DNA of 28,597 nucleotides from Nanohaloarchaea archaeon PL-Br10_U2g27 (GCA_001564035.1 LKMX01000001.1:1-28597), one strand, 5' to 3'; shown: positions 1-28,597, counted from the stretch's first letter. Numbers and translations: made by a program. Notes: generated from the sequence alone by a model not told the origin.

Positions 1-534
1 AGCAGAATGACGGTCAGCTTGAAGAGCTTACCTGACGCGCTGAGAGGAGCTGCATGGCCGCCGTCAGCTCGTGCCGTGAGGTGTCCGGTTAAGTCCGGTA
101 ACGAGCGAGACCCGCATCTCATGTTGCCCTAGAACCACTTCGGTGGTTTTGGCACTCGTGAGAGACCGCTGGTGATAAACCAGGGGAAGGAGCGGGCCAC
201 GGTAGGTCAGTATGGCCCGAATGCTCTGGGATACACGCGGCCTACAATGGCCGGGACAAAGAGATGCAACCCCGAGAGGGGAAGCTAACCTCCTAAACCC
301 GGTCCTGGTACGGATTGAGGACTGCAACTCGTCCTCATGAAGGCGAAATCGGTAGTAGTCGCTGGTCATTATCCAGCGGCGAATAAGTCCCTGCTCCTTG
401 TACACACTGCCTGTCAAGTCACCCGAGTCAGGTTCAGACGAGTACCTCCATTTGGGGGCGCAAGTCTGAGCTTGGCAAGGGGGGCTAAGTCATAACAAGG
501 TAGCCGTTGGGGAACCAGCGGCTGGATCACCTCC
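1..534 (+). rRNA. rrs: 16S rRNA, 3' part (5' end outside window)
   Basis: Archaeal conserved blocks GCATGGCCGCCGTCAGCTCGT (52-72), GTACACAC (400-407), AAGTC.TAACAAGGTAGCC (487-505) and anti-SD GGATCACCTCC ending at 534. Confidence 0.98.
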
Positions 535-907
535 AAAACAATTCAACACCACAAACCTGGTGTTGTAACTTTACATTTCACTCAGAAATCCCGTTTCTTC
601 CTACAATTCCTTACACTTTCTACAATTTTCTTCCTACAGAACAACTAAAGTATGTTTTACTGCATTCATTTACTGCTTTTTCCGGTCACTCTGATTTATC
701 TGTGACGCTTCTAATCTTCTCAAACATTCTGTCGCCGTTCATTAAGGCCTGTGTTTTTGTTGCAGCGAGTATTATTGTCTCCGGGTCTATTGCTGTTAGA
801 ACTGTTCGTATGAGGTGTTAGGTAAGTCAGAGGGGGAAATTTGTAAGATATATTTAGAAAGAGGGGAGAGGGTTGAAGTTAGGTGTTTGAAGAAAGATGA
901 GGAGGGG

Positions 908-3493
908 TTAGTAGCCTTTGCCGTAGATTTTGTTGGCTATTTTCTTCAAGGCCTCAATGAAGCCCATGGTTGCGAGAGCTCCTCCGATTGTGATCGCCCA
1001 CTCTCTAGGGCCTAGTGGTACGTGTCCGAAGAGGCTTGCTGCTGGCTCCCAGTATATCAGGGTTAGTAGTACTGGAGTGATTGTTGCTATTGATGCTAGG
1101 ACCCATTTGTTGTCGGTTAGACTTATGTCTGTTATTGAGTCTGTCAAGGATCTGAAGTTGAATGTGTGGGCCATGATCATCAGCACGATAGCTGCGAACA
1201 CCATTGTCCTAGCGGTGTCTAAGTTGTCTAGAGGGTTGCCTAGCATGAATACTGTGAACCCTGCTATACCCATGAATACGGCCATGCTTCCTACGAGGAA
1301 TAGGTTTCTCTGATCTAGTAGTTCTTGGTCTGTAGGCCTTGGGTCGCGCTCCATTATGCCCTCGGTTTCTGGATCCAGGCCTAAGGCGATTGCAGGCATT
1401 TCTTGGCCTATTACGTTGAGGAATAGGATTTGCAGCGCGATTAATGGTAGGTATTCGAATCCTAGGAATATTAGGCCTAGTGTGATTATTGATATTTCTG
1501 TGTAGCTTCTTGAGATTAGGTATGTTGTGAATTTTTCTATGTTGTCGTATATTCTTCTTCCTTCGCTTACTGCGGTGACGATTGTTTCGAAGTTGTCGTC
1601 TTGGAGTATCATGTCGGCGCTTTCTTTTGTGACGTCTGTTCCCTTCATTCCCATTCCTATTCCTACATCGGCTTTTTTTACTGCTGGGGCGTCGTTGACT
1701 CCGTCACCGGTCATTGCAACTATTTCTTTGTCCTCTTGCAAGGCCTCAACTATGTGAAGTTTGTGTTGCGGCTGTGTTCTCGCGTATACGTCTACGTCAG
1801 GGACTTTTTCCTCAAGTTCTTCTTCGGTCATTTCCTCGATTTCTGGGCCTGTCAGAACTTTAGGATTTTTTGCTAGGCCTATGTCTTCTGCTATGGCTTT
1901 GGCGGTTGTAGGGTTGTCGCCTGTGACCATTTTTACGTCGATTCCTGCGGTGCGGCATTCGTCTATTGCCTCTGCTACTTCTTCTCTAGCGGGGTCGATC
2001 ATTCCTGCTAGGCCTAGGAAAGTCAGGTTTTGTTCAATGTTTTCGTCGCTGTAAGGTTCTGATACGTTTTCTCGGTAGGCTAGGCCTAGTACTCTTAATG
2101 CGTTTTCTGCGAACTCTTCGTTTTTCTTTAGTATTTCTTCTCTTTTTTCGCTGCTTAACTCTATTTTTTTGCCTTCTATCATGATGTGGCTGCATTTTTC
2201 GAGTATTATTTCTGGAGCGCCTTTAGTGAATGCATGTGTTTCTCCGTCGATGCTATTGATTGTGGTCATCATTTTTCGCTCGGAGGTGAACAGGATTTCT
2301 TTTTCTCTACTGTATTTTTCGTCAATTTCTTCTTTTTCTAGGCCTAGTTTTTCTCCAAGCACTATTAATGCGCCTTCTGTCGGTTCTCCGCTTAGGCTAT
2401 ACTGTGCTTCATCTTTCATGAGTTCTGCGTTGTTACATATTACTGCGGTTTCCGCTGCTTTTCTCAGTGTTTCGGATTCCGGTTCTATTTCTTCTCCGTT
2501 CTCATCGGTTATGGTGCCGTGAGGGATGTATCCTGAACCGGTTACGCCTAGCTCTTGGTTGTCAAGCCACATCTTTTTCACAGTCATCTCGTTCTTCGTC
2601 AACGTACCGGTTTTATCCGTACAAATAACGGTAGTTGAGCCTAGGCCTTCCACGGCAAGCATTTTCTTAACAATTGCTTTTTTCTCAGCCATTTCTCTCA
2701 TCCCTAGTGAAAGAGTTAAAGTTAGTGTAAGAGGCAGAGCTTCAGGGATTGATGCTACTGCAAGTGCAAGTGTGACGATCAAGATCTGGCCAACAGGAGC
2801 GTTTTCCATTAGGCCTAGTCCAAACACTACTAGTGAGACTGCTAAAGCTATTACGCCAAGTTTTTTACCTAGGCCGTCGATTTTTCTTTGAAGAGGTGTA
2901 TCGTCTTCCCCGCCTTGGATTTCCTCTGCTATTTCTCCCAGCTTGGAGTTCATTCCAGTCTTAGTTACTTCTGCTTCGCATCGGCCATGCACTATGGTGG
3001 TGCCAGAATATACTTCGTCGCCGTTTTCCTTGCTTACAGCTTCAGATTCTCCCGTCAGTATTGCCTCGTCGACTCTTATGTCTGTGGATTCGATTATTTC
3101 GGCATCAGCAGGGACTTTATCACCCATCTCAAGTTTTATTACGTCTCCAGGAACCAAGCTCTCGCTTTCTACTTCTGTTATATCTCCATCTCTGTAAACC
3201 TCTACGGTCGGAGAAGTCATGTTTTGAAGCTCTTCCATAGCTTTCTCAGCCTTCCATTCCTGTAAGAATCCCATGGCAGCTATTATTCCGATTATTGCGG
3301 AAATAAAGTAAAATTCAAGCATTTCGCCGACAGCAAAAGAGATTACTGCGGCCACAGCCAAGATCCATATTAAAACGCTTGAAAACTGTCTCTTCAAAAC
3401 ATCTAGCTTAGTTGTAGGGTTCTCCTCTTCCAACTCGTTTTTACCGTATTCTTCAATCTTTTTCGATGCTTCTTCAGATGTAAGGCCTTTCAC
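908..3493 (-). CDS. P-type ATPase, type II (SERCA/PacL-like fold) cation transporter, GTG start
   Basis: TGES actuator motif, DKTGTLT phosphorylation motif, MVTGD, TGDGVNDAP hinge, M4 IPEALP and C-terminal TM helices. Confidence 0.96.
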   Translation of the reverse strand: MKGLTSEEASKKIEEYGKNELEEENPTTKLDVLKRQFSSVLIWILAVAAVISFAVGEMLEFYFISAIIGIIAAMGFLQEWKAEKAMEELQNMTSPTVEVYRDGDITEVESESLVPGDVIKLEMGDKVPADAEIIESTDIRVDEAILTGESEAVSKENGDEVYSGTTIVHGRCEAEVTKTGMNSKLGEIAEEIQGGEDDTPLQRKIDGLGKKLGVIALAVSLVVFGLGLMENAPVGQILIVTLALAVASIPEALPLTLTLTLSLGMREMAEKKAIVKKMLAVEGLGSTTVICTDKTGTLTKNEMTVKKMWLDNQELGVTGSGYIPHGTITDENGEEIEPESETLRKAAETAVICNNAELMKDEAQYSLSGEPTEGALIVLGEKLGLEKEEIDEKYSREKEILFTSERKMMTTINSIDGETHAFTKGAPEIILEKCSHIMIEGKKIELSSEKREEILKKNEEFAENALRVLGLAYRENVSEPYSDENIEQNLTFLGLAGMIDPAREEVAEAIDECRTAGIDVKMVTGDNPTTAKAIAEDIGLAKNPKVLTGPEIEEMTEEELEEKVPDVDVYARTQPQHKLHIVEALQEDKEIVAMTGDGVNDAPAVKKADVGIGMGMKGTDVTKESADMILQDDNFETIVTAVSEGRRIYDNIEKFTTYLISRSYTEISIITLGLIFLGFEYLPLIALQILFLNVIGQEMPAIALGLDPETEGIMERDPRPTDQELLDQRNLFLVGSMAVFMGIAGFTVFMLGNPLDNLDTARTMVFAAIVLMIMAHTFNFRSLTDSITDISLTDNKWVLASIATITPVLLTLIYWEPAASLFGHVPLGPREWAITIGGALATMGFIEALKKIANKIYGKGY

Positions 3494-3631
3494 TAATATA
3501 TTATAGAAAATAACTCGTTGATAAAAGCAAGTGTTTTCCTGAATTCTTTTTTCATCCTTGAAGATTGTTCATTACAACAACACTCTCATATATAGTTTTT
3601 CCAGAGTCTGTAAGACTACAGGTGCATTAAA

Positions 3632-3982
3632 TTGGATAGTTATCAGGCTGATCAAGACGACGCTCAGGTCGCATACGATCTAACACAGCAGATGCTAGAT
3701 GACGTGCCTCCAGAAATTAGGAATATAGGCCTCATGCTCGAAGCAGAATACGACTCGGAAAAAGAAGTGTTTACATATATTTTGCAGCCTCAAGAATGGT
3801 ACAAAGAAATAATGAAGGAAGACTTCTGTGCCATGGGCCAACTATATTTTGCTACCGAACATGAAATAGTGGGGGAAAAAGTTCTGCCAGAAACACTTAA
3901 AGACGAGTTTTCAGAAATGCCCATAAAATACAATGGAGATGTATTAAGAAAATCTTACTCTGATGAACACTGCTGGCAGTAA
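3632..3982 (+). CDS. Hypothetical acidic protein (116 aa, TTG start uncertain)
   Basis: Open frame with D/E-rich composition like the other genes here; no family recognised. Confidence 0.6.
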   Translation: MDSYQADQDDAQVAYDLTQQMLDDVPPEIRNIGLMLEAEYDSEKEVFTYILQPQEWYKEIMKEDFCAMGQLYFATEHEIVGEKVLPETLKDEFSEMPIKYNGDVLRKSYSDEHCWQ

Positions 3983-4010
3983 TCTGCCGAGAAAAATACA
4001 TGATTGGGAG

Positions 4011-4084
4011 TGGACCCTCAGGGATTTGAACCCTGGGCCTTCCGCTTGCAAAGCGGACGTTCTGCCGGACTGAACTAAGGGCCC
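4011..4084 (-). tRNA. tRNA-Ala (TGC)
   Basis: Reverse complement folds as a cloverleaf: acceptor GGGCCCT/AGGGTCC with G3:U70, anticodon arm TCCGC-TTTGCAA-GCGGA, T-loop TTCAAAT; no CCA encoded. Confidence 0.97.
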
Positions 4085-4438
4085 CATATGTCTCTATGAT
4101 TATCTGGTTTGATGTATTCTTTTAAATTGTCTTCAATCAAGTGTTTACCCTATTTAAAGTTTTGACCGGATGTTTGGTTACAGGCCTAGGATGGACGAAA
4201 CAGTCATGTCTGTTTTTAAAGTTTTGAGGCCTGTTTGTTGTATACCGGTTTTACCGGTATCGATAATGTTAGTAGAAGGGCGTCTTAAAACGGTGTCCTA
4301 AGCATGAATCCGTCGCCTGAATCTAGATGTGGGCGATAGTAATGCACCCCTCGATAGAGTATTGTTTTTAGGGGTAAGTAGGATTCGACCAGAATTATCT
4401 GCATTTGACTTGATTTGCTTCAAGTACTTCGCTTGAAA

Positions 4439-4457
4439 ACGGAGCAAATCAAGCCGG
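4439..4457 (+). other. 5' arm of pre-23S bulge-helix-bulge processing stem
   Basis: ACG-GAGC-[AAA]-TCAAGCCGG pairs with CCGGCTTGA-GCTC-[TAA]-CGT at 7430-7448: 4-bp helix flanked by two 3-nt bulges. Confidence 0.85.
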
Positions 4458-4466
4458 ATGCCCGAA

Positions 4467-7420
4467 GCCTGAACCTATTACTCAATGCTGAGTAGTGGAT
4501 GGCTCGGTTCGAGAAGCCGATGAAGGACGTGGTAAGCTGCGATAAGCTTGGGCGAGGCGCATGCAGCCTTGGAGCCCAAGATTTCCGAATGCGACTTCGT
4601 GACCTGTTTCGACAGGTCGACACGCAATGTGTCGGTAACGCGGTGAAGTGAAACATCTCAGTAGCCGTAGGAAAAGAAACCAATAGGGATTCCCTTAGTA
4701 GTGGCGAACGAAAGGGGAATAGCGCAAACTGAAGCTTCTACAGTGATGTAGAAGCGATGTGGTTCGTTCTTCCTTTAGAACTGAATGGGATAGCTTAACT
4801 CCTCTGGAAAGAGGGGCCGTAGAGAGTGATAGCCTCGTAGGCAACTTCCGTGACGTTCATAGGTTGAGCAAGAGTAGCACGGGTTGGAAATCCTGTGTGA
4901 AGATGGGAGGCACATTCTTCCAACGCTAAATACTTCTCGAGTCCGATAGCGCACTAAGTACCGTGAGGGAAAGCTGAAAAGTACCCCTAGAAAGGGGGTT
5001 AAAAGAGCCTCAAACTATTCAGTAATAGGCTAGATATGGCATGAAAGCGTCGATATCTCTGAACGAATCAGTCGAGAGACTTTAGTAGGAACGAGGTGGA
5101 GCGATGTCATATCATCCGTTTTGAAAAACGGGGCAGGGAGTTTGTCACCGTGGCGAAGCTAAGTCGTTTACGCGATGGAGCTGTAGCGAAAGCAAGAAGC
5201 CCGCAACGTCTTTGACGTGAGGGGCCGCGTGTTAACGCGCGTGAAGTCACCGTGACATGATCCGAAACCGGTCGATCCTGGCCTGGCCCGGCTGAAGCGG
5301 CGCGAAAGCTCCGTGGAAGGCCTCACCGGTGCTGTGTTACAAGCGCTCGGGTGAGCTAGGTCAAGGGGTGAAATGTCAATCGAGATCGGTTATCGCTGGT
5401 TCCTCTCCAAATGGATCGAAGTCCAGCCTCAAGCGAGACGGTCTAAGAGGTAAAGCTACTGATTCTGGGTTTCTGGACGCAAGTCCAGGCCTGGAGTCAA
5501 ACTCTGAACTCTTAGACGTTGTAGACCTTGGGAGTGAGGGGCAATGCGTAAGGTATTGTTCCTAGAGGGAAACAACCCAGAGCATGGTTAAGGTCCCATA
5601 ATTCCTGGCTAAGTGTCGTTGAGGATGTCCTGATTCTCAGACAGCGGGAAGGTTAGCTTAGAAGCAGCTACCCTTTAAAGAAAGCGTAACAGCTCACCCG
5701 TTGAGAGTCGGGGCGCCGTAAATGGACGGGGCTCAAGCCAGGAACCGAGACCATGCCGTTCACTTTTGTGGACGGGTAGAGAGGCGGTCTGCATGGACGG
5801 AAGCACGGAGTTGACTTCGTGTGGACCGTGTAGACACGAGAATCCTGCCGGCAGTATCAGCACAAGAACGGTGAGAATCCGTTCCGCCAAAAAAGGAAGG
5901 GTTCCTCTGCAATGTTTATCAGCAGAGGGTTAGTCGGTCCTAACTCCACTCCTAACTGGACGTGGAGGAATAGGGAAGCAGGTTAATATTCCTGCACCTA
6001 CTCACGTTAACTGACATTTCGGGATAACGGAAGCTGCGCCTTCGCGCAGTCTAAACTGTTAATGCATGGCGAGCGTAATGCTTAGAGCCTGCGAATCAGT
6101 GAATGGCCTGGGAAAAATCCCGGGTTTCCGCTATTCTTGGAATCCATGAAAAGGTGTGAGAGACCGTACCCAGAACCAGCACAGGTCCTTTGGCTGAGTA
6201 GGCTAAGGCGTATCGGGTATAACGCAGCTTAGGGAATTCGGCAAATTAGCCCCGTACCTTCGGTAGATGGGGTGCCTATCCACTTGATTGGATAGGTTGC
6301 AATTACCAGGGAAGCTCGACTGTTTACTAAAAACATAGCCGACTGCTAGTTCGAAAGGATTTGTATAGTCGGCGACTCTTGCCCAGTGCCAGCACCTGAA
6401 ACCTCCGTTCAAGGAGAAGAAGGGCTGGTAAACGGCGGCGGTAACTATGACCGTCTTAAGGTAGCGTAGTCCCTTGCCAATTAATTGTTGGCCCGCATCA
6501 ATAGAGTAACGAGGTTTCCACTGTCCCAAGCTGTGGTCCGGTGAACCCGCCATACCGGCGCACAGGCCGGTGACTCCTGGTGGGAAGCGAAGTCCCTGTG
6601 AACCTTCACTGCAGTCTATCGTTGCGGTGGGGTCCCAAGTGTGAAGCGTAGGTAGGAGACATTACAGAGGCGCGGTCGCTAGGCCGTCGCCCAGTCGTCC
6701 ATTGGACACTACCCTCTTGGAACCCCGCTGCTTACTTCTACGGAAGGACAGCGGTAGCTGGGCAGTTTAGCTGGGGCGGCATCCCTCTGATAACACATCA
6801 GAGGGGTCCAAAGGTAGGCTCAACCCGGTCAGAAATCGGGTGTAGAGTACAAAGGCAAAAGCCTGCCTGACTGGAATCCTGATAGTAGGGTTTCCAGGCG
6901 CGAAAGCGTGGCTTAGCGAACGCCTATAGCCAAAATTTTCGTGAGGCTTAGGCCTGACAAGAAAGGTACTCCAGGGATAACTGGATTGTCTGAGGCGCGA
7001 GCTCACATCGACCCTCAGGCTTGTTACTTCGATGTCGGCTCTCCGTATCCTGGCTGTGCAACAGCAGCCAAGGGTGGGGGTGTTCACCCATTAAAACGGA
7101 TCGTGAGCTGGGTTTAGATCGGCGCGAGCCAGATCTGTTGCTATCTGCCAGGAGTGCAGAGTGGTCTGAGAGGAAAGTCCGGACAGTACGAAAGGAACCC
7201 CGGACTGGAGCCTCTGGTGTATCGGTCGTCCGGAAGGGCGGTGCCGAGTAGCTACGCTCCACAGGTGTAAGAGCTGAAAGCATCTAAGCTCGAAAGCTAC
7301 CTCAAAAAGAGACCGCATTTCCCGCGCCCATATAAGATGGGTTGATAGAGTGGCGGTGTAAGTACCAAGGCAACGAGGTATTCAGCCGACCACTACTAAG
7401 AGCGGAACTCGGGTTCAGGC
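4467..7420 (+). rRNA. rrl: 23S rRNA (ends approximate)
   Basis: Conserved GATGAAGGACGTG near the 5' end, GGTAACTATGAC, PTC segments GGGATAAC and TCGATGTCGGC, GAGCTGGGTTTAGA, sarcin-ricin loop AGTACG.AAGGAAC; terminal pairing GCCTGAACC (4467-4475)/GGTTCAGGC (7412-7420). About 2950 nt, no obvious intron. Confidence 0.97.
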
Positions 7421-7429
7421 CGACGGCAA

Positions 7430-7448
7430 CCGGCTTGAGCTCTAACGT
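7430..7448 (+). other. 3' arm of pre-23S bulge-helix-bulge processing stem
   Basis: Complementary to 4439-4457 with 3-nt bulge TAA (7443-7445). Confidence 0.85.
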
Positions 7449-7540
7449 AAAAAACTCAAGTTAACCAAATTCTTGGTCGAATCCTGCTTTTTCCAACTAA
7501 CATTTACTTATTCTTTAACATTTGAATTGATAACTACTGC

Positions 7541-7852
7541 TTGGAGCCGGGAGACAGGTATCCCTTTGTTGAAAAGGGAGGAAAGTCCTGACCGCATTAT
7601 TTGGCAGTGCAGGCGCAAGGCCTGTACTCTGAAAGGAGATGGCTTTTACCGTAACCTCTAACAATTTAGAGGGTAGGGAGAGGCCTGGGTCGCAGAAACG
7701 ACACGTCCTGCGTTAAAGATGATTGCAGTATGAAATGCATGATGTTTCGCAGTTGGATCGGTGAAACGAGGCCTGATCTGTGCGGCAAGCCCTTTGAGGT
7801 GCTTAGTTGAATCCTGTCTACTAACAGAATCAGGCTTACTTACCGGCTCCAA
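7541..7852 (+). ncRNA. rnpB: RNase P RNA
   Basis: P1 TTGGAGCCGG (7541-7550)/CCGGCTCCAA (7843-7852); CR-I GAGGAAAGTCC; CR-II/III-like GCAGAAAC and GGTGAAACG; CR-V AACAGAATCAGGCTTA; P2 GACAGG/CCTGTC; 312 nt. Confidence 0.9.
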
Positions 7853-9904: not shown

Positions 9905-9910
9905 CTGGCT

Positions 9911-13480: not shown

Positions 13481-14611
13481 TTAGTCTAGGAATTCTTCGT
13501 TCTTGATTTTTTCTGGTAGGTAGGTGTTGGCTACGAATTCTAGGCTGTTTGCTGCTAGGGCTTGCTGTTCTACTCTTACGCCTTTTTCGAGCATGAGTTG
13601 TAGCTGGTTTTGCCATTGTTCGTTCTGCATCCATTCGTAGTCCATGACGTCGTGGATTCGTTTGTAGTCTTTTGTGGGGCCTCCGTTGTCTTTGCTTTTT
13701 CCTTTGAGGCCTTCTGTTACGTGGTTTAGGTCGTATTCGTCGATGTCTTCCATTGTCATTCCGATGAGCTTGGCGTCTGGTGTTGCCAATCTGTCGGATT
13801 GGAATGCTAGGCTCATGGAGCCGGATTTGAGTACGGAGTAGATGTAGTATCCCCATGGGTCTCCGTCTGTGAATACGTAGACTGGTAGGTCTAGTTCGTT
13901 GTGCATCATGTTGATTAGTCTTCTGGCTCCTCTTGCGGGTTGTCCTCCTGTTCCGATGATGATGGCGTTGTGGTCTTTGTGGAAGTCTTCTTCGACTAGT
14001 CTGTTAACCATGGCGCTGGTCTCTACTACGAGTATGAAGTCTGCATTGTTTTCCACGAATTCGAAGTGGTCGACGATTGAGTTGATTGCCATTCCGCTGC
14101 TTCCCATGCTCATTCCGTCGATGATGTCGCCAGAGTCTTCGATTTTGATCGGTCCGAAAAGCCTTCCTTTAGGCTCTGCGAAGAGGTGGAGGTCTTCACG
14201 GATGGCGCCTGTAGCGGTTTCTATGTCGACAACAACGTTGTTGGACTCATCTTGGTCTTCGAACGTGTTCTCGTCTAGGCCTGGAACACTGTGCTTTAGT
14301 TGGTAGTAGACCTCTCTGATCGATGCGGTTCTTTTACCTTCTACAAGTTCTTTACATTTTGCTGCGACCATTGTGGTCTGCATGAACTTTCTTGCATGGG
14401 AGATGTTGAGGAATTTTCTTGTGGAATAAGAATCACCTAACTCTAGTTTTTCCGCTTCTTCGTCGTATTCTACGTTTGATTTTGATCTTACCTGGGTTTC
14501 AAACGTCAAGTTGTCAGAGTCTTCGTCTTGAAGCTGTCTGAGCAGTTTTTCTCCCAAGTGTGTCAGTCTGTCAAGTGTCTTTTCGTCGTTTGCTAAGTCT
14601 TTCTTTGGCAT
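13481..14611 (-). CDS. top6A: DNA topoisomerase VI subunit A (Spo11-like)
   Basis: REVYY catalytic Tyr motif, Toprim ILVVE, GGQP and FTDGDPWG; SD AGGTGA supports ATG at 14611. Confidence 0.96.
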   Translation of the reverse strand: MPKKDLANDEKTLDRLTHLGEKLLRQLQDEDSDNLTFETQVRSKSNVEYDEEAEKLELGDSYSTRKFLNISHARKFMQTTMVAAKCKELVEGKRTASIREVYYQLKHSVPGLDENTFEDQDESNNVVVDIETATGAIREDLHLFAEPKGRLFGPIKIEDSGDIIDGMSMGSSGMAINSIVDHFEFVENNADFILVVETSAMVNRLVEEDFHKDHNAIIIGTGGQPARGARRLINMMHNELDLPVYVFTDGDPWGYYIYSVLKSGSMSLAFQSDRLATPDAKLIGMTMEDIDEYDLNHVTEGLKGKSKDNGGPTKDYKRIHDVMDYEWMQNEQWQNQLQLMLEKGVRVEQQALAANSLEFVANTYLPEKIKNEEFLD

Positions 14612-14620
14612 CAAACTCAC

Positions 14621-14722
14621 CTACTGAGTTTGATCAAGTTGAGCTGCGTTCGGCGCTGAGGCCTCAACAGCTCTGTTCTGATCTTGGTTTTGGGTTTCCT
14701 CTACGTCTTCTTTGTATCTCAT
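14621..14722 (-). CDS. Putative 33-aa micro-protein between top6B and top6A
   Basis: MRYKEDVEETQNQDQNRAVEASAPNAAQLDQTQ*, SD GAGGTG (14737-14732) 9 nt upstream, fills the intergenic gap almost exactly. Confidence 0.5.
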   Translation of the reverse strand: MRYKEDVEETQNQDQNRAVEASAPNAAQLDQTQ

Positions 14723-14736
14723 TTTTTGATGCACCT

Positions 14737-16323
14737 CTAAAGTTGTTCTGGGTTGTAGTCGGCCTGAACCATGGCCTCGATTTTCTCCTGGATTTGATCT
14801 GAGTCGCCATCTCCTGCTAACTGTGCTATCGCAGGCCCCATCTCTTTTGCATAAGCTGTTAGCTGGCGCTTCTTCTTTTCCTGGATTGCTCTCCGCTCTT
14901 TTCTTCCTATATAACGCCCTAGCTTTCTACCCGCCTCTTGCAAGGCCAGTTTCATCTCTTTCCTGATAGGATCGTAGTTAGCTACAGCCTCCTTACCTTC
15001 AGATGTGAAAGGAACCCATACAGATGCAATATGCACTAATACGTAGAGCGGGCCTTGAGGCCTTTCTCCGGTCTGTGAAATGTTGTACCGGTTCCATGAA
15101 ACTTCTTCCACAGCCTTCGTGGTCACACACGCTGATTTTTTGTATAGGAGAGGTACTTTGTTAGCGAAACGCAGTTCGTTGTAACTGCCTTCTTCCTTGA
15201 TGTCTCCTCCCCATGCGAGGCCTACTTCTATTTGGAATGGGTTTCCTTTGTATACTGTTGGTTTACGTGTTATTGCTGTTGAGAACTCAGGGTTTAATTC
15301 TTTTTTCAGTCCTTTGAGTATAAGTTCTTCTCCTATAGGGCTTAGGCAGTTGGTTGGCGGGCTCTGAAGTTTTACTCTTTGTGCTGCTTTCAGTAGCTGC
15401 TCGATTTCATCTTTCTCTAGCGTGTTAGGCCTTCTTCCAGTGTCTATTCCTGCTTCGTCACATATTTCGTCTGCGCTCGTTCTACCTACTCTTGTGAACT
15501 CGTTTTGCAGGAATGAGGATATTGTTCTTGCGTTGCTGTTCTCGATCATCCTCATTAGTACTCCTAATTCTACTCCATGCGGATGGGGTTTGATTTCTTT
15601 TGGTGCTGGAGGCAGCTCCCGAGATACGCGCGGGAACTCTACCTTGTTTCCGTCCGGCTCTCTTAGAACTACTCTTGCGTACGGATTCATGATTGCCGTG
15701 TGTTTGAGGTAGTTGTAGACGGAGTGGTGGCCACGAGTATATTTAGCCTCTATATCCATTTCGATTGTAGTCCCGTGATCGAAGTAGTAGTCTTTGTCGC
15801 CTGGGAACTCGTTGCTGTCGGCATCTATTACTTCATCTTTTATTATCTCGGGCTCGTTTTTCTCCGTGTCGATTCTTACGACAAACTTGTGGCAAGGCCT
15901 GCCTTTCTGTTTTGAGTACACTGTTACGGGTTCTCCTGTCGTTAGCTGGGCGTACATTGCTGATGCTGAGATACCGATTCCTTGTTGGCCTCTGCTCTGC
16001 TGTAGCTTGTGGAACTTAGATCCGTACAAGAGTTTTCCGAATACTTTGGGGATTGTTTCTCTGTCTAGGCCTATTGCGTTATCTCTTATTTCTATCCGGC
16101 ATTTTTTGTCTGCTATTTCATCTATTAGTACGTGTATTTCGGGCAGTATTTCGTCTTCTTCGCATGCGTCCAGCGAGTTGTCGACTGCCTCTTTAACTAC
16201 TGTTATTATGGATTTCTGCGCGTTTTCGAATCCAAGGAGGTGTTTGTTCTTTTCGAAGAACTCTGCCACAGATATTTCTCTGTGGTCTCCTTCAACTATT
16301 TCTTCTTCTACTGCGTTAGACAT
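14737..16323 (-). CDS. top6B: DNA topoisomerase VI subunit B
   Basis: ISVAEFFEKN, GHKL motifs KEAVDNSLDAC, DNAIG, LLYGSKF, SRGQQGIGIS, RFANKVPLLY. Confidence 0.97.
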   Translation of the reverse strand: MSNAVEEEIVEGDHREISVAEFFEKNKHLLGFENAQKSIITVVKEAVDNSLDACEEDEILPEIHVLIDEIADKKCRIEIRDNAIGLDRETIPKVFGKLLYGSKFHKLQQSRGQQGIGISASAMYAQLTTGEPVTVYSKQKGRPCHKFVVRIDTEKNEPEIIKDEVIDADSNEFPGDKDYYFDHGTTIEMDIEAKYTRGHHSVYNYLKHTAIMNPYARVVLREPDGNKVEFPRVSRELPPAPKEIKPHPHGVELGVLMRMIENSNARTISSFLQNEFTRVGRTSADEICDEAGIDTGRRPNTLEKDEIEQLLKAAQRVKLQSPPTNCLSPIGEELILKGLKKELNPEFSTAITRKPTVYKGNPFQIEVGLAWGGDIKEEGSYNELRFANKVPLLYKKSACVTTKAVEEVSWNRYNISQTGERPQGPLYVLVHIASVWVPFTSEGKEAVANYDPIRKEMKLALQEAGRKLGRYIGRKERRAIQEKKKRQLTAYAKEMGPAIAQLAGDGDSDQIQEKIEAMVQADYNPEQL

Positions 16324-20958: not shown

Positions 20959-21030
20959 CGCCCCCTCAGGGATTTGAACCCTGGATCTGCACCTCCGCAA
21001 GGTGCCGTCTTTCCACTAGACCAAGGGGGC
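20959..21030 (-). tRNA. tRNA-Arg (GCG)
   Basis: Acceptor GCCCCCT/AGGGGGC, anticodon arm GCACC-TTGCGGA-GGTGC, D-loop GGA (A20 Arg identity), T-loop TTCAAAT. Confidence 0.95.
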
Positions 21031-21264
21031 ATTACATATTAGTTGTCTGAAGTTACTGTTTTAACGCGTTTGCTGTCCCTCACCTTTTTTATATAACGAC
21101 GTTAAATCCGTTTTTAGGGTTTTAATATGAAAGATTTAATCAACAAGATAAAAAGCAAGCTGGGCCTAGACTAGGCCGGCTTCTCAAACAGTCAAGGCCT
21201 CTAAGCAGAGGTCAACATGTTTTAACTTTTTCTTTTGAACAACTTTAGTAGGTGTAAAGAAAAA

Positions 21265-21519
21265 ATGGGAGACATAGCTTGTGTATACAAGGTAATGCCA
21301 GAAGACGCTGAAACCGATCTAGAAAAAATAAAAGAACAGTTAAGAGAATTATTGGATGTCGACGACATGGGAGAAGAAAACGTCGCGTTCGGATTAAAAG
21401 CTGTAAAAGTATCCTGTGTCACAACAGATGAAGAAGGCGGCACAGATGCAGTAGAGGAAAAACTCGAACAGTTAGAAGGCGTTCAAAGCTACGAACTAGA
21501 ACACTTCGACAAACTCTAA
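21265..21519 (+). CDS. ef1b: Translation elongation factor aEF-1beta
   Basis: YKVMPED...DLE, VAFGLKA, EGGTDAVEE...LEGVQS; SD AGGTG upstream. Confidence 0.95.
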   Translation: MGDIACVYKVMPEDAETDLEKIKEQLRELLDVDDMGEENVAFGLKAVKVSCVTTDEEGGTDAVEEKLEQLEGVQSYELEHFDKL

Positions 21520-21534
21520 CAGGCCTAACATATT

Positions 21535-21672
21535 CTAGCTTGTTAAAAACTTTTTTTCTCCGCCGTTGCAGGCTCTGCAACCGGTTTCCAGTTTATCTTC
21601 TCTACAAACGTTTGATCCGCATATTTCGCAGCCGATAACAGCTTCCAGGTTCTGACAGTAGTCGCACAGCAT
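21535..21672 (-). CDS. Small Cys-rich zinc-finger protein (45 aa; absent from ORF track)
   Basis: Own translation MLCDYCQNLEAVIGCEICGSNVCREDKLETGCRACNGGEKKFLTS*: C-x2-C-x8-C-x2-C-x4-C-x8-C-x2-C. Confidence 0.8.
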   Translation of the reverse strand: MLCDYCQNLEAVIGCEICGSNVCREDKLETGCRACNGGEKKFLTS

Positions 21673-21712
21673 AGGATACTGTTTAAACTTTCTAGGCCTT
21701 AACGTTTATTCA

Positions 21713-22732: not shown

Positions 22733-24044
22733 TCTTTAACTCCTCAAGCACAAGCTCCATCATCTCTCCAAGTTCAACATATCCTTCTCTTATATCCTTT
22801 ATCTGCTCCTCTTGGTGCTCTATCTCTGAAACCAAGGCCTTGAAATCATCTCTATCAAGAGAGTCTTCTAACCTGTTGACCCTCATCCGAAGATTTTTCA
22901 TTCCTTTACCTTCAACCCGGTTCAGCCTTTTCTCGACACGGCTGAGCCTTTGACTGCTTTCTCCTTTCTCAAGTCGTTCAATCTTTTTCTTAGATTCTTC
23001 AAAATCATCTATCTTATCTGAGGCCTTTTTCAACTCGTCGTACTCGTCTTTTGAAAGCAGTTTGAGCTGAGCAAGGTCGTCGAAGTCGTTGAAAACCCAT
23101 TTGAAATCAGATACAACGCCTCTAAGATTGTTCACTTGTTCTTTGATTTCTTTATAGTTCTCGGCTGTTTCTGAGGACTCAAGCTTTTCAATTTTCTTCT
23201 CTAAGTTCTCTACGCTAATCAAAAGATCTTCGAAAGCTCTCTTCTCAACATCTGAAACTCTATCGCTAAGATCTGATAGGTCAGACCTAACTTCCTCTAG
23301 TTCAGATGAATCGGTGTCCTCTGATTCAAGAGCATCAATCCGCTTCTCAAGACCTTCAATTTTGGAAATATGGTCTTCAAAGTCGCTTGATGAGTTGTCA
23401 GAAGAATCTTCTAGCTCTTCTATTCTTGACTCTAGCTTGTTAAATTCTTCCTCTAGGCCTTCATAGTGGTCATATCCTTCAGCTTTTTCTTCAATCTCTC
23501 CCAGATCGTTTTCTATGTCTTCTATTTTTGATGTCTTCTCATCAAGTTTACTTATCTTGTCATGGAGTTCTTCGCTGTCCGAATCAGCTAAGTCTTCAAT
23601 CCGTTTTTCAAAATCATCTAGTTTCTCATTAACAGATTCAAGCCTATCAATTTCGTCTTCCAAGGTGCTGAGCCTTTTTTCAAGGCCTGAAGTGTCGGCC
23701 GTTTCAAGGTCGTTTATATCTTTCTTCAGATTGTTTACCAGATCTGTTTTTTCTGCTACTCTGTCTTTCAACATTTCAATAGCTTCGGCGTAATCTAAAT
23801 CGTTTATTTCTGATTCAAGTTCCGATATGCGTTCTTCAATTCTTTCAAAAGATTCATCAGAATTTTCATCTTCTTCAGACTGATCTGTATTGGTTACAAC
23901 ATCGTTTGCGTCATCGGATTCATTATTTTCTTCATCTACCGGCGGTTCGGAGACCTCGGGTTCTTCCTCTTCAGTATCGTTTTTTGAGTCTGCTCCCAGT
24001 TTAGTTTGGTCGTCTTTTCCACCGAAAATCACATTTTCTGACAT
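22725..24044 (-). CDS. Long acidic coiled-coil protein (439 aa), unknown function
   Basis: Repeated heptad segments (LEKRLSTLE, FEKRIEDL, LESRIEELE, LEKRIDALE, LEKKIEKLE, VEKRLNRVE); disordered acidic N-terminus; no TM or signal; SD-like GGAG upstream of ATG 24044. Confidence 0.8.
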   Translation of the reverse strand: MSENVIFGGKDDQTKLGADSKNDTEEEEPEVSEPPVDEENNESDDANDVVTNTDQSEEDENSDESFERIEERISELESEINDLDYAEAIEMLKDRVAEKTDLVNNLKKDINDLETADTSGLEKRLSTLEDEIDRLESVNEKLDDFEKRIEDLADSDSEELHDKISKLDEKTSKIEDIENDLGEIEEKAEGYDHYEGLEEEFNKLESRIEELEDSSDNSSSDFEDHISKIEGLEKRIDALESEDTDSSELEEVRSDLSDLSDRVSDVEKRAFEDLLISVENLEKKIEKLESSETAENYKEIKEQVNNLRGVVSDFKWVFNDFDDLAQLKLLSKDEYDELKKASDKIDDFEESKKKIERLEKGESSQRLSRVEKRLNRVEGKGMKNLRMRVNRLEDSLDRDDFKALVSEIEHQEEQIKDIREGYVELGEMMELVLEELKTR

Positions 24045-24156
24045 TTTAACCCTCTCCGTAGAACAGAAAAGAATCTCAAATGTTAAAAGCATTTTTCACT
24101 AGCCGACAACAACTACTAACAAAATCAATAAATTCCATCCAACAATAATTCTAGAC

Positions 24157-25614
24157 ATGAAGACTCTGCTCGTAGTAATTGATGGACTAGGCCTCCGAAA
24201 AGAAAAAGAAGGAAACGCGTTCAAACAAGCTGAAACACCGAACATCGAAAAATTAATGCAAAAACATGGTTGCCAAGAACTAGAGGCCTCAGGAAAAGCA
24301 GTAGGCCTGCCAGAAGGATACACAGGCAACAGTGAAGTAGGCCACCTCCATATCGGAGCAGGAAGAACAGTGCCCCAACGCCTCACAAGAATAAATAAGG
24401 CTATTGAATCCGGAGAATTAGGAGAGAAGGAAGCTTTGAAACAAGCGTTTTCAAGAGCGGAAGAAAACGGATCCAAAGTCCATTTAGCAGGTATAATCAG
24501 TGACGGAGGAATACACGGCCACATAGAACACTTGAAGGCCTTGATAGAAATATCTCGTGACTATGATGTAGAGCTTGAGATTCACTGCTTCACTGATGGC
24601 CGTGACACCTCGCCAAAATCCGCGGAAAAATATATTTCAGAGCTAGAAAAAGTTCTCGAAAATTCAAAAGGAAGTATCGCAACAGTAATAGGCAGGTTCT
24701 ATGCCATGGATAGGGACAGTAATTGGGAGCGAACTCGCCAGGCCTATGATGCAATGGCTCACGGAAAAGGATATGGTTTCGAAGAGCCAAGAGAAGCAGT
24801 TGAAAAGGCCTACAGCGATGGCGAGTACGACTACTTCATACAGCCATCAGCAAGATCTGATTATGAAGGCATAGGTTTCGATGATGAGCTGATATTTTAC
24901 AACTATAGAGCTGATAGAGAGAGGCAGATAGCAGAAGCATTTATCAAACCTGGATTTAACCATTTTGAGAACAATGTCAGGCCTTCTTTCACCTCGATGT
25001 TTCCATATAGACGGGATTTCGATAATCCTGTTATTTTCGAAAAAATGGTTGTGGAAGATACTGTGGGAGAGAAAATAGAGAAATGGGGTATGTCGCAGTT
25101 AAGGGTTGCCGAGTCTCAAAAAAAGCCGCACGTAACTTATTTCTTCAACGGCCAGCGCGAGCTGGAGTTCGATAATGAAGAGCGCAGATTTATAGAAAGC
25201 GATAAGATCAAGGCCTTCGATGAAAGACCTGAGATGCATGCTGAAGAAATAACTGATATTGTAATTGATGCGGTAGAAAAAGGTGAAAAAGACTTTATCT
25301 TAATGAACTACGCCAACTGCGACTTAGTAGGGCATACTGGCGAGCTCGACGCTACAATTACTGCTGTTGAAACTGTTGACAAAAATATTGGGCGTTTAAC
25401 TGAGGCGGTAGAGGACTCAGAGTATGCCATGATTGTTACTGCTGACCACGGGAACTGCGAGGACATGGGAGGAGAAAAAAGCTCGAACACCTCTCATACG
25501 TTGAATAAAATTCCGTTCATACTGGTCTCTGAAAAACAAGGAGAAGAACGGATTGACTCAATATCTGATGTCTCAAAAGTAGTTGAATCCTTACTCAATA
25601 GGCCTAAAAGCTAA
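24157..25614 (+). CDS. gpmI: 2,3-bisphosphoglycerate-independent phosphoglycerate mutase (bacterial-type iPGM)
   Basis: IDGLG, GNSEVGH (phospho-Ser), SDGGIHGH, FTDGRD, GRFYAMDRD, DLVGHTG, TADHGN. Confidence 0.96.
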   Translation: MKTLLVVIDGLGLRKEKEGNAFKQAETPNIEKLMQKHGCQELEASGKAVGLPEGYTGNSEVGHLHIGAGRTVPQRLTRINKAIESGELGEKEALKQAFSRAEENGSKVHLAGIISDGGIHGHIEHLKALIEISRDYDVELEIHCFTDGRDTSPKSAEKYISELEKVLENSKGSIATVIGRFYAMDRDSNWERTRQAYDAMAHGKGYGFEEPREAVEKAYSDGEYDYFIQPSARSDYEGIGFDDELIFYNYRADRERQIAEAFIKPGFNHFENNVRPSFTSMFPYRRDFDNPVIFEKMVVEDTVGEKIEKWGMSQLRVAESQKKPHVTYFFNGQRELEFDNEERRFIESDKIKAFDERPEMHAEEITDIVIDAVEKGEKDFILMNYANCDLVGHTGELDATITAVETVDKNIGRLTEAVEDSEYAMIVTADHGNCEDMGGEKSSNTSHTLNKIPFILVSEKQGEERIDSISDVSKVVESLLNRPKS

Positions 25615-25865
25615 TCATCTTCTCCACTTTCTTCTCCATTTCCGCCATTGCATTCTGATCTCCAAGAGTCTACGTCTGGACAGTCTGCGTCTTCAGCAGC
25701 TTCATAATTGCATCTGGCTTCATACAGCTCGCAGCTAGATTCATCTGTTTGATCGCCTAAAAATTCGGTGAACTCTGTCGACTCTCCGGCTACCATAAAA
25801 ATTAGTATGCTGGCGATTAAGACCACTACTACTGCAGCCAGCACTACTTCAATGGTTTTATCCAT
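25611..25865 (-). CDS. Small pilin-like membrane-anchored protein (84 aa, 4 Cys)
   Basis: N-terminal hydrophobic helix (TIEVVLAAVVVVLIASILIFM) and acidic Cys-containing head similar to the upstream pilin. Confidence 0.75.
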   Translation of the reverse strand: MDKTIEVVLAAVVVVLIASILIFMVAGESTEFTEFLGDQTDESSCELYEARCNYEAAEDADCPDVDSWRSECNGGNGEESGEDD

Positions 25866-25868
25866 TAT

Positions 25869-26168
25869 TTAGACCTCTGCACAGCTTATTTGGCCGTCAG
25901 GATCATCAGTCGACTGGCTTGCAGGAGGTATTACATTACCTTCGGATATGCAGCTGGAAGGAACGTCAACCTCTGCATTATCGTCTAGGCCTTGGCAGGA
26001 CGCTGATAATGCGGTTTCGCATCCTGTTTCGTCTGCTTCGCCTCCGAAGTCTATCAGGCCTTGCAGCCCTCCTTGCAGCATGAATACCAGTGAGAGTGCT
26101 GCGATCATTAGGACTGATGCGGCTACGATCAGCCAGAGAATTTGGGATAGGCCTTTTCTATTGTTCAT
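25869..26168 (-). CDS. Archaeal type IV pilin-like protein with class III signal peptide (99 aa, 4 Cys)
   Basis: MNNRKG|LSQILWLIVAASVLMIAALSLVFML: basic KG cleavage motif followed by hydrophobic H-domain. Confidence 0.85.
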   Translation of the reverse strand: MNNRKGLSQILWLIVAASVLMIAALSLVFMLQGGLQGLIDFGGEADETGCETALSASCQGLDDNAEVDVPSSCISEGNVIPPASQSTDDPDGQISCAEV

Positions 26169-26250
26169 GTGTATATTGTTTGGAGGCCTGTATAAAAAGT
26201 CTTTCAAAAAGAAAGGAGAGAATGATATGGTTTGATAGTGTTCCTAAAGT

Positions 26251-26535
26251 TTAAGGTTTGTTGAGGTCGATTTGGATGCTGGATACGTTTAGTTCGTCTC
26301 CTTCGTCGGTCTCGATCTCGTCTGTCCCGATTGTGATGTCGTGTACTTTTGCGTCTTCGACGAATCTGTCTTTTACGATTTCTGCTACGTCTACTGCTCT
26401 TGAGATTGCTTTTCCTCTTGCTTTTACGTGTACTGTCTCGTTTCCTTCGCTGAACTGTGTTACTACTGCTAGCACATAGCTCATTGCCGGTTTTGATCCT
26501 ACGTATACTGTGTTGTCGTCTTCTTGTTCTGGCAC
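26251..26535 (-). CDS. albA: DNA/RNA-binding protein Alba
   Basis: [37 protein letters not shown]; SD GGTGA upstream of GTG. Confidence 0.96.
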
Positions 26536-26637
26536 TTTCGTTCACCTTGGTTCTGGTTTAGGGTTTATCTATAAAATACTTTTTTCAGCGGAAGGTCTAA
26601 TCTATAGTTGTGGCTGTTGTTTAGAAGAAGTGTTATT

Positions 26638-27783
26638 TTAGTTGAATTCGTGGGTGTAAGGTTCTACTCTAAACTCTAAGTTTTCGTAGCTGTCATCAAT
26701 AATCACTGACTGCTCCGAATCTCTGATCACCCAGTCCATGTTCACAGAACTTGGCTCTGCTTCCGCCTCAGCGCTGTAACGGTCTCTGCAGGGAGGATCA
26801 TCTTCATCACAGTCATCGCCACAACAGCCGCAAGTTCCTGCGTCCTCCGAAGTTGTGCTTCCTGATCTCTCGACCGAACCAGAATCCAACCGGTCCCATC
26901 CAGCATCAGAAACATAGTATTCTTCGCTCGGATCAGTTACAAGCTCGACAAAACCTCTTCTTGGCTTAGAGTCCAGTCCTGCCTCAATGCTGCTTTCCAC
27001 TGCGTCTTCTAAATCCTCTCTTGCTGACTCTTCTGCAGATTCTTCTGCTGAGGATCTGCTGACACAGCTTGTAGCTGTAGAATCATATTCTTCTCCTGAA
27101 AGCTCGTCAAGCTCCTCTTCAATTGATAAAAAGGCCTCAACGGTCTCGTCCATTAGCTGTGGATATCTATTGTTTGTGGCGTTCGTTTCCGTTGAGTAGA
27201 ATAGGCCTTCGTCGATGTAGAATGTTTCTCCTGAACTACTTTCGCATCTTACTTCTATAGGTTCCGGATCAGGAAGTTGGAAGTCAAAAGGGTCTCCGAA
27301 GTCTACTTCATGTCCGACTGAAAGAGGATTGTCCTTGGTCTCTACTTCAGAATAGTCTGATGATAGAACGCCGTGTTGTATATCTATGTCATAACTGCTG
27401 TCAGGTACTTGGCAATTTCTGCTTTCAGATCCGTCTAAGGTATCCGTTATTTTACGGCTTGAAGCGTCGTTAATATTATCGTTCAGGATCTGGATATTGG
27501 TTTCATAGCTGCTAAGCCAGTTGTTGTTCCAGTTGGATCCGCCGCCACGACTTCCTAGCTCTTGACTGGCATTATTTACTGAGTACTCTGCTGCTAAAGG
27601 CACATAGTTGTAGAAGTAGAAGTCTCCGTAGGCCCTTGTGTCCACAACTCTTTCAATATCGTCTGTGGATTCTCCGACTATCTGTCCAAGGGCCTCAGCA
27701 ATAGGTAGTGACTGTGTAGCCATAGCTATAGATAGTATGAATAGGCCTAGCATTGGTAGAACGCCTTCCATTGATCCTTTCAT
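26638..27783 (-). CDS. Large pilin-like surface protein with class III-like signal (381 aa)
   Basis: MKG|SMEGVLPMLGLFILSIAMA, acidic extracellular body, Cys cluster TCGCCGDDCDEDDPPC. Confidence 0.75.
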   Translation of the reverse strand: MKGSMEGVLPMLGLFILSIAMATQSLPIAEALGQIVGESTDDIERVVDTRAYGDFYFYNYVPLAAEYSVNNASQELGSRGGGSNWNNNWLSSYETNIQILNDNINDASSRKITDTLDGSESRNCQVPDSSYDIDIQHGVLSSDYSEVETKDNPLSVGHEVDFGDPFDFQLPDPEPIEVRCESSSGETFYIDEGLFYSTETNATNNRYPQLMDETVEAFLSIEEELDELSGEEYDSTATSCVSRSSAEESAEESAREDLEDAVESSIEAGLDSKPRRGFVELVTDPSEEYYVSDAGWDRLDSGSVERSGSTTSEDAGTCGCCGDDCDEDDPPCRDRYSAEAEAEPSSVNMDWVIRDSEQSVIIDDSYENLEFRVEPYTHEFN

Positions 27784-28349
27784 TCTACGTCGAATACACC
27801 TCCGGTTCCTCTAAAGTACATTGTTATCTCTCCTACTTCGCCGCCGCTCAACTGGAACGGGAGACTTATCGAGTTCCAGGATCCGTCTCGGCCCTCGTTA
27901 TCAGATACTTCGATGAACTTGCTGCCGTCGCTGTTGGTAATGTTGAGATAGTAATCCTGCTGTTCAGGCCTCTGCGAAAAGCTTTGCTCCATTTTATAAC
28001 TGTAATATGCTTCTAAGTCTTCTTCAACTTTTTCTCTACTGTATTCTTCCCCGTGTATGTCAAGATCGTCGTCAGTTGACAGGTAGTGTGAGGTAAGTTT
28101 TATTGCGGTGAAATTGTAGTACTGTTCTTCAACATCGTCAGCTCTCCAAACGTTATCGTTTAACATTGTTGTAAGGACTGATCGGTCGCTTATTGACTCC
28201 ATACTGCTTTCGATCTCCACTTCTACGTCTTGCTCGAACTCTGCGTCATCAGATGACAGGAAAATGAATATTGCAAAAGCCATGAATATTGCCATTGCAA
28301 AAATTAAAACTTCGGCAATCATTCCCTGGCCTTTAAGGCGAGTATACAT
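27780..28349 (-). CDS. Pilin-like surface protein with class III signal peptide (189 aa)
   Basis: RLKG|QGMIAEVLIFAMAIFMAFAIFIFL; SD GAGGTGA upstream; 4-bp overlap with the next gene. Confidence 0.82.
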   Translation of the reverse strand: MYTRLKGQGMIAEVLIFAMAIFMAFAIFIFLSSDDAEFEQDVEVEIESSMESISDRSVLTTMLNDNVWRADDVEEQYYNFTAIKLTSHYLSTDDDLDIHGEEYSREKVEEDLEAYYSYKMEQSFSQRPEQQDYYLNITNSDGSKFIEVSDNEGRDGSWNSISLPFQLSGGEVGEITMYFRGTGGVFDVE

Positions 28350-28597
28350 GCAGTATCACCTCTAAAGGAGGATTATCCTCTCTTTTAATTAATGCAGGGC
28401 TCCAGACAGAGTCTTGCACTCCTGTAAAGCGGCACTGGATAGTTTCAGGCTCTTCGGCGTACTCGTTCTCATCGCTCAAAACCTGGACTCCGAAAGCAAA
28501 TTCTTCTCCATCAAGGCCTGTAACCTCGCTGATGTAGCAGTTATCGTTCCTAGTGTGGAAACCGGCTTCTCCATCTTCCGGGTCCTCGTTACTCAAC
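28333..28597 (-). CDS. 3' part of an acidic, probably secreted protein (5' end outside window)
   Basis: Frame open to the window edge, acidic with Cys, overlaps the start of the next pilin-like gene. Confidence 0.65.
   Translation of the reverse strand, partial: LSNEDPEDGEAGFHTRNDNCYISEVTGLDGEEFAFGVQVLSDENEYAEEPETIQCRFTGVQDSVWSPALIKREDNPPLEVILHVYSP

Follow-up and report, generated by a model that had tools for sequence, protein, structure and literature searches.

The stretch of DNA analysed here, a contig of 28,597 nucleotides from Nanohaloarchaea archaeon PL-Br10_U2g27 (the window), is crowded with the palindromic hexamer AGGCCT. This motif is best explained as an archaeal "highly iterated palindrome" (HIP), and apparently a methylation-free one. 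A lineage-specific force acts on the DNA itself, site by site, and favors the exact hexamer roughly 15-20x in unconstrained DNA. The force is blind to gene identity, and no shared DNA methyltransferase accompanies it. It raises the rate at which site-creating substitutions become fixed and lowers that of site-destroying ones, so that eventually about 70% of the positions permitted by the protein, and intergenic DNA at a similar density, carry the hexamer. RNA structure and a second copy within about 30 bp oppose the force. In one sister species, where the force has lapsed, the copies are being eroded, chiefly through C>T and C>A changes; the evidence that this is true decay is moderate. Tentatively, and with somewhat less than even confidence, we attribute the pattern to a bias in fixation that acts site by site, independently of methylation, through a sequence-specific dimeric DNA-binding or repair factor, the existence of which we only infer.

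An exact pattern search found exactly 97 copies in the window, or one per 295 bp, whereas dinucleotide-preserving shuffles of the window yielded 7.57 ± 2.66 and at most 17. An initial annotation of this DNA had arrived at about 97 by hand, and both that figure and its coordinates were correct, including nine copies in gpmI, none in the partial 16S rRNA, three in the 23S rRNA, and the intergenic copies. The motif and the features that carry it are distributed as follows.

1..28597: 97 copies of AGGCCT in genes on both strands, in all three reading frames and in intergenic DNA (exact pattern search).
1-535: part of the 16S rRNA, 0 copies (Rfam, site list).
4475..7419, plus strand: 23S rRNA, 3 copies at 5318, 5487, and 6950 (Rfam, site list).
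7542..7851, plus strand: RNase P RNA, 3 copies at 7618, 7681, and 7769 (Rfam alignment with structure line).
13481..16323, minus strand: genes for topoisomerase VI A and B, with copies at 14277, 15058, 15218, 15427, and 16067.
21195..21699: intergenic copies at 21195, 21521, and 21694 (site list and open reading frame [ORF] list).
24157..25614, plus strand: gpmI, cofactor-independent phosphoglycerate mutase, 9 copies (Pfam, site list).
745, 4182, 4227, 8142, 12301, and 13424: further intergenic copies (site list and ORF list).

The enrichment is not limited to the window, which is contig C40 of an assembly (G000; relatives are G001-G018 and so on) with 582 kb in 52 contigs, 43% GC, and about 79% completeness. 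This genome contains 2095 copies, or one per 278 bp, and the density is 2.5-5 per kb on every sizeable contig and 2-5 per kb on all contigs other than the low-GC C20 and C24. AGGCCT is its commonest hexamer, more than 2-fold ahead of any other. An order-1 Markov null puts the ratio of observed to expected counts (O/E) at 15.7; with the motif left out of the background, it becomes 19.4 (order 1) or 14.3 (order 2). The second-ranked of the 64 palindromic hexamers has a ratio of 2.2. As had been proposed, the enriched unit in G000 is strictly the hexamer, with 63% of all GGCC tetramers sitting within AGGCCT and flanks that are nearly information-free.

The excess also persists under a null that keeps both protein sequence and codon usage. 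Shuffling synonymous codons within each gene, based on crude gene calls, gave 264 ± 13 copies in the coding sequences (CDS) of G000 versus 1703 observed, and the excess extends to each of the three frames. Coding DNA carries 3.64 copies/kb and non-coding DNA 3.43. The description of AGGCCT as a HIP1-like genomic signature is upheld, as it is genome-wide, present in all frames and in intergenic DNA, and depleted in rRNA. We found no published description of its abundance in nanohaloarchaea in the open-access literature, which agrees with the earlier remark that the motif seemed undescribed there.

We counted AGGCCT in 30 relatives, with a reversed-word control alongside. The window's genus is represented by five genomes, of which G000, G001, G002, and G004 carry 3-4.8 copies/kb, and G005 and G010, closed genomes of two other genera in the same family, carry about 4/kb. 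The remaining member of the genus, G003, has 0.95/kb. About 12 other genera of the family, together with other families, stay at a background of 0.04-0.6/kb, like the control, and the trait is absent from G016. In a Top6B and GpmI tree, G003 is the sister of G000 (support 100) and nested in the enriched genus; G005 and G010 cluster with the non-enriched G016. Taken with the motif counts, this tree makes the trait clade-limited, with relaxation or loss at least in G003. The mapping across Nanohaloarchaeota that the initial annotation had called for thus places the motif in its own genus and two further genera of one family.

The strength of the force can be expressed as the occupancy of permissive positions, i.e. 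those at which AGGCCT can be written without changing the protein. For this comparison, G003 (815 kb) and the closed G005 genome (1.046 Mb) were assembled from fetched regions. The fraction of permissive CDS positions that are filled is 0.69 in G000, 0.73 in G005, and 0.22 in G003, and it is flat at 0.69-0.73 in the least, middle, and most conserved terciles of proteins. Sites showed no association with indels when compared with alignment gaps; they therefore arise by substitution, and an insertional origin is ruled out. The effect of the motif at the amino acid level is modest: G000 has 15.9 permissive peptides per 1000 aa and the same orthologues of G003 have 13.0, and RP dipeptides occur at 1.57x expectation versus 0.91 for PR.

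The initial annotation had asked whether variants with one mismatch are depleted; against expectation, none is notably low in G000 (O/E 0.85-2.5). Inner-position variants there are mostly close to 1 (0.6-1.2 across G000 and G005), with AGGCGT at 1.45, and in G005 they fall mildly short of expectation (0.62-0.98). Enrichment is seen at the outer positions in G000 (1.3-2.5); for AGGCCC the ratio is 2.5 there, 4.5 in G005, and 0.7 in the non-trait genome G018. The deamination products AGGTCT and AGGCTT have ratios of 1.24 and 1.00 in G000, and 0.90 and 0.78 in G005. According to a rough steady-state calculation, a drive that worked via only the four C>T neighbors could not sustain a 15-fold excess and would deplete those neighbors. 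By our own calculation, a reversible bias on all 18 neighbors leaves them at baseline, close to what is observed. Neighbors at or above baseline would thus fit a bias on all 18 of them and not a single T:G repair path.

Copies also interfere with each other at short range. Gaps of <30 bp between copies in G000 number 61, compared with 218 expected; long gaps are in deficit too, and the spacing is more even than random (gap coefficient of variation [CV], 0.83). Where a neighboring copy lies 10-20 bp away, permissive occupancy drops to 0.31 in G000 and 0.59 in G005, and at 20-30 bp it is 0.51 and 0.66, reaching about 0.7-0.8 beyond that distance; shared codons partly confound the 6-10 bp bin of this test. 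AGGCCT also peaks mildly directly past stop codons. On a larger scale, a periodogram of G005 from 5 to 200 kb did not differ significantly from a gap-permutation null (P = 0.18), in a single genome and with a test simpler than that of Xu et al. (2018).

Purely intergenic copies in G005 (n = 512) have symmetric flanks, with G at.44 and T at.10 in position -1, A at.47 in position -2, and T at about.4 in positions -3 to -5, for a rough consensus of TTTAG·AGGCCT·CTAAA. Because these copies are intergenic, the symmetry is not a codon artefact, and it looks like a protein footprint. Intergenic copies in G000 show only T at.39 in positions -3 and -4 as a flank preference. A suitable DNA probe for the motif would be TTTAGAGGCCTCTAAA, with the AGGTCT variant as contrast.

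Among the structured RNAs, the 23S rRNA carries about 1.0/kb against 3.6/kb genome-wide. All three copies in the 310-nt RNase P RNA lie in helix strands, and the second and third lie on opposite strands of one helix, as expected because AGGCCT is self-complementary. Structured RNAs may accommodate the hexamer as stem partners.

The history of individual sites was followed across the relatives. The sites of the window are also AGGCCT at homologous positions in 50-71% of cases in G002, G004, G005, and G010 and in 44% in G001. In G003 the figure is 9/45, and the rest are mostly single-substitution derivatives. A site-by-site comparison of gpmI gave the same picture, in that several copies are AGGCCT in trait-bearing relatives too and single-substitution derivatives in the sister species G003. 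All five topoisomerase VI sites are AGGCCT in most trait genomes and AGACCT, AGGTCT, AGGCCG, or AATCCT in G003; at these sites (14277-16067) the non-trait genomes G006 and G018 have unrelated hexamers. For 283 orthologue triplets of G000, G003, and G005, we tallied presence (1) or absence (0) of AGGCCT in that order.

111: 52
101: 270
011: 26
110: 111
100: 514
010: 53
001: 567

Read as losses, these patterns give 270 sites lost and 52 retained by G003 out of those common to G000 and G005, against 26 lost by G000. Sites of G000 are AGGCCT in G005 in 34% of cases versus 8.5% for other hexamers. We have nevertheless withdrawn positional conservation as proof of ancient inherited sites: at the 567 positions permissive in both G000 and G005, joint occupancy was 322 observed versus 303 under independence. 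Independent near-saturation therefore accounts for most of the sharing, which is no proof of inheritance. The robust result from these alignments is a high equilibrium occupancy in each trait lineage at a divergence saturated for synonymous changes (62% nucleotide identity).

For G003, there is moderate support for true decay, rather than for a state of enrichment that was never reached. Parsimony on the tree favors loss. The derivatives, folded to one half-site, are mainly C>T and C>A at both cytosines: the inner C changed to T 66 times, to A 21 times, and to G 11 times, and the outer C changed to T 27 times, to A 12 times, and to G 4 times, with 13 changes of the outer T in all. AGGTCT has an O/E of 1.81 in this genome versus 0.9-1.4 in the others, an excess that may be the fossil of former sites and lends moderate support to decay. 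GC content is 39.4% in G003 versus 43.2% in G000. Apparent in-frame stops in G003 genes were N-terminal over-extensions of crude ORF calls, and we discarded them as signs of pseudogenes or recoding.

Based on these observations, we propose a mechanism in which a sequence-specific, probably dimeric DNA-binding or nicking factor would read the hexamer together with weak symmetric flanks. The factor would bias mismatch correction or gene conversion toward the motif-bearing strand, without DNA methylation, and the bias would presumably feed into a route of NucS/EndoMS plus recombination. We presume this route because MutS (PF00488) was not found in G003, G004, G005, G010, or G018, each at least 92% complete. 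NucS/EndoMS, by comparison, is a core gene, present in 5/5 genomes tested, and mismatch repair in the family therefore presumably runs through it. Since about 70% of permitted positions are filled and no saturation of a benefit was seen, we prefer a per-site molecular bias over selection at the level of the organism; near-saturation without diminishing returns beyond about 30 bp fits the bias better than a benefit to the organism. A methylation-independent drive through repair or gene conversion, or else a chromatin protein that has thousands of cognate sites, may write the hexamer into about 70% of permitted positions, though we put the chances moderately against it.

Several points weigh against a per-site bias. 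Natural selection on a binding site would also be compatible with every sequence signature listed above. A more mundane cause of the short-range exclusion could be the 6-bp hairpin that two copies <30 nt apart form. A methyltransferase that is unrecognised or supplied by a host is improbable but would undercut the premise, and 5-methylcytosine (m5C) would escape single-molecule real-time (SMRT) sequencing as well. Finally, no gene tracking the trait was found among the candidates tested, with about 237 G005-specific ORFs falling outside the test.

Those candidates came mainly from a comparison of gene content, in which about 49 genes occurred in both G000 and G005 but not in G003. By synteny, RadC, a VRR-NUC nuclease, and an HD-domain protein were truly lost or replaced in G003. 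RadC adjoins NucS/EndoMS wherever both were located (G005, G010, G014, and G018). In G003 it is cleanly deleted beside NucS (C10, ~18.9-20.4 kb), leaving the flanking genes 313 bp apart; in G000, where the compared locus is C18:1325-1987, they are 778 bp apart. However, RadC is near-universal and also occurs in non-trait genomes, so we rejected it as the trait factor, and the link between its loss and motif decay in G003 is therefore only suggestive. The VRR-NUC protein, DUF123, DUF460, and an HTH/S-layer-C protein were rejected likewise, all being present in non-trait genomes too, as was a second PolB-like gene, which lies inside a foreign island of G005.

The same observations bear on a rival explanation, under which selection maintains the copies as binding sites for an abundant, sequence-specific chromosomal protein (architectural, segregation, repair-loading, or self-marking). 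Every copy would contribute slightly to fitness, and the excess would reflect mutation-selection balance instead of a by-product of repair. A bound protein would naturally account for the palindromic core, for the symmetry of the intergenic flanks, and for exclusion within about 30 bp, as well as for the even spacing in G000 with its few long gaps, neighbors that are not notably depleted, and foreign islands free of the motif. Xu et al. (2018; PMC5861425) argued for selection and a nucleoid role in the case of HIP1. Nonetheless, about 70% of positions are filled uniformly across genes, whereas a benefit should saturate well before one site per 250 bp, and thousands of sites would each need a selection coefficient s > 1/Ne (Ne, effective population size). 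G005 also shows no significant large-scale periodicity, G003 and G016 appear to manage without the sites, and no trait-specific DNA-binding protein was found. We consider this explanation unlikely on balance, though a serious contender, and a selected chromosome-organisation site, as offered in the initial annotation, is a possible reading.

A second rival, which we judge improbable, is a cytosine methyltransferase specific for GGCC or AGGCCT, unrecognised or host-supplied, combined with repair biased to the methylated motif, whether of the very-short-patch type or the G-meC ratchet of Elhai. The one-off variants are biased to outer positions, as in HIP1, and in G003 C>T changes hit the inner C 66 times and the outer C 27 times, a 2.4x difference. 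This inner C of GGCC is the base methylated by M.HaeIII. Moreover, the motif has the central GC that Elhai's model requires (PMC4390886), and one proposal has nanohaloarchaea and their hosts exchanging methyltransferases (PMC11001535).

Six-frame profile searches of the genomes gave little support to this explanation. C5 (PF00145) and N4/N6 (PF01555) methyltransferases had no match in G000 or in the closed genomes G005 and G010, and neither Vsr nor D12 Dam (PF02086) was found in G005 or G010. A C5 methyltransferase does occur on a small contig of G004. The sole strong match to PF02384 was a Type I methylase in a motif-poor island of G005, and PF05063 was silent in the control genomes as well, so that its silence is given no weight. 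G005 carries a 1236-aa MmeI/Eco57I-type gene (Type IIG-like, PF07669; G005:C1:477082-480792) with only 5 AGGCCT copies and a 74% identical orthologue in a different genus (G013:C54:3332-7057). It has no counterpart in the window's genus, G010, or other genomes searched, and its few copies suggest that it was probably acquired by horizontal transfer. G010 has a different Eco57I-like gene (PF07669), apparently split, and the window's genus has none. No methyltransferase is common to the trait genomes; those present are sporadic and vary between genomes. The γ-class/Type IIG and Type I enzymes (PF07669, PF02384) sit in motif-poor DNA or look split, and the window's genus had neither.

Elhai's model also needs MutS, which the searches did not find, and AGGTCT and AGGCTT are not notably depleted (1.0-1.2 in G000, 0.78-0.90 in G005). 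The only nanohaloarchaeal methylome paper we found reports only GDGcHC, and neither AGGCCT nor GGCC, as methylated, in a strain that may lack the trait (PMC11001535). The initial annotation had suggested either a drive or a selected site, with a cytosine methyltransferase and biased G:T repair as the engine, and had recommended searching for an orphan C5/N4 enzyme and a Vsr-like nuclease. A lineage-specific force at the DNA level survives from that proposal. The methyltransferase with Vsr or G:T repair is not supported, as the search returned no methyltransferase common to the trait genomes and no Vsr in G005 or G010, and the T-containing variants are not notably depleted.

The uptake site that the initial annotation had offered as an alternative, i.e. 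a signal resembling the DNA uptake sequences (DUS) of Neisseria or the uptake signal sequences (USS) of Pasteurellaceae whose carrier fragments are preferentially taken up or recombined, would suit the excess in all frames and intergenic DNA, the rather even spacing, the mild post-stop peak, and a pilin-like gene cluster in the window, but we set it aside as highly improbable: ComEC (PF03772) had no match in the five genomes searched (G003, G005, G010, G014, and G018), and at 4 copies/kb each fragment carries many, so that any per-site advantage would be gone long before 70% occupancy. Known uptake signals are oriented words of 9-12 nt, longer than this hexamer, that occur about once per kb and depend on competence. 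AGGCCT resembles them as a possible molecular drive spreading a short, rather evenly spaced word through genes and spacers, and differs in being a palindromic hexamer at 3.6-4 per kb.

Other familiar systems share single features with AGGCCT. Very-short-patch repair by Dcm/Vsr enriches CCWGG in enterobacteria; it needs a C5 methyltransferase and Vsr, produces only modest enrichment, and depletes the T-containing variant. Our proposal resembles it in that biased repair makes a short palindrome more frequent, but the 15-fold excess, the lack of notable T-variant depletion, and the failure to find either enzyme set AGGCCT apart. Restriction-modification systems of the StuI type (AGG^CCT) and the HaeIII/MthTI type (GGCC) recognise the same word or its core, yet they normally lead to site avoidance, not enrichment, and no matching methyltransferase is common to the trait genomes.

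HIP1 (GCGATCGC) and the alternate highly iterated palindromes of cyanobacteria (Elhai 2015, PMC4390886; Xu, Lawrence & Durand 2018, PMC5861425) are likewise short, GC-rich palindromes in at least 15-fold excess, which recur every few hundred bp both in spacers and in all frames of genes. They too are lineage-specific with sporadic loss, and their one-off variants are biased to outer positions. A methyltransferase specific for the palindrome or its core was present whenever the palindrome was abundant (Elhai 2015, PMC4390886). HIP1 sites were conserved beyond neutral expectation and distributed periodically at 10-90 kb, and their origin has been unexplained for more than 20 years (Xu et al. 2018, PMC5861425). 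By contrast, AGGCCT is archaeal and a hexamer rather than an octamer. It has no cognate or shared methyltransferase that we could find, which is the central association in Elhai's account, and MutS was not found either. It approaches saturation of permitted positions, and it showed no significant 5-200 kb periodicity in the one closed genome tested. We therefore do not file it as a HIP in the strict, methyltransferase-linked sense. Since sharing across genera is mostly independent saturation, the argument from HIP1 that conservation implies selection is not directly transferable. New here are the occupancy, the substitution origin, the interference between copies, the symmetric flanks, the undepleted one-mismatch neighbors, the independent saturation, the lack of a shared methyltransferase, and the failure to find Vsr, ComEC, or MutS in the genomes searched.

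These results extend a HIP-type signature to a second domain of life. The genomes concerned measure ~1 Mb and encode few DNA enzymes, NucS/EndoMS being the only one recognisable for mismatch repair, and the on/off contrasts between close relatives narrow the search greatly. The results also question the generality of the methyltransferase model for highly iterated palindromes. If our reading is true, a lapsed sister species and cultivable relatives would make this the first tractable system for the origin of such palindromes. AGGCCT biases codon and dipeptide usage, and so distorts compositional and selection analyses. Shared motif positions that can come from independent saturation call for caution in arguing function from conservation.

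Stretches without the motif mark foreign DNA, and AGGCCT therefore serves as a sharp marker of resident versus foreign sequence for binning and island detection. In G000, contig C20 (5587 bp, GC 0.369) has 0 copies and C24 (5454 bp, GC 0.380) has 4; recent acquisition, mobility, or mis-binning is the probable reason in both cases, and the sister genome G003 has syntenic counterparts for parts of C20. In G005:C1, the motif is missing from stretches of 2-4 kb that would be expected to hold about 10-16 copies, at ~670-692, 836-843, 1031-1041, 168-174, and 298-301 kb. The first of these islands, probably an integrated element, contains the two genes below.

683.4-684.4 kb: Type I N6 methylase.
687.2-689.3 kb: family-B polymerase-like gene.

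A further motif-free stretch of 3.1 kb at 129.3-132.4 kb of G005 (GC 0.515) is probably the rRNA of that genome. In the window itself, the 16S-23S spacer is ~3.9 kb long (535-4466) and holds two features.

908-3493, minus strand: 861-aa P-type cation ATPase, antisense in the spacer.
4011-4084, minus strand: tRNA.

Sequence of the window was seen elsewhere only in pre-assembled contigs of a 2012 salt-lake metagenome.

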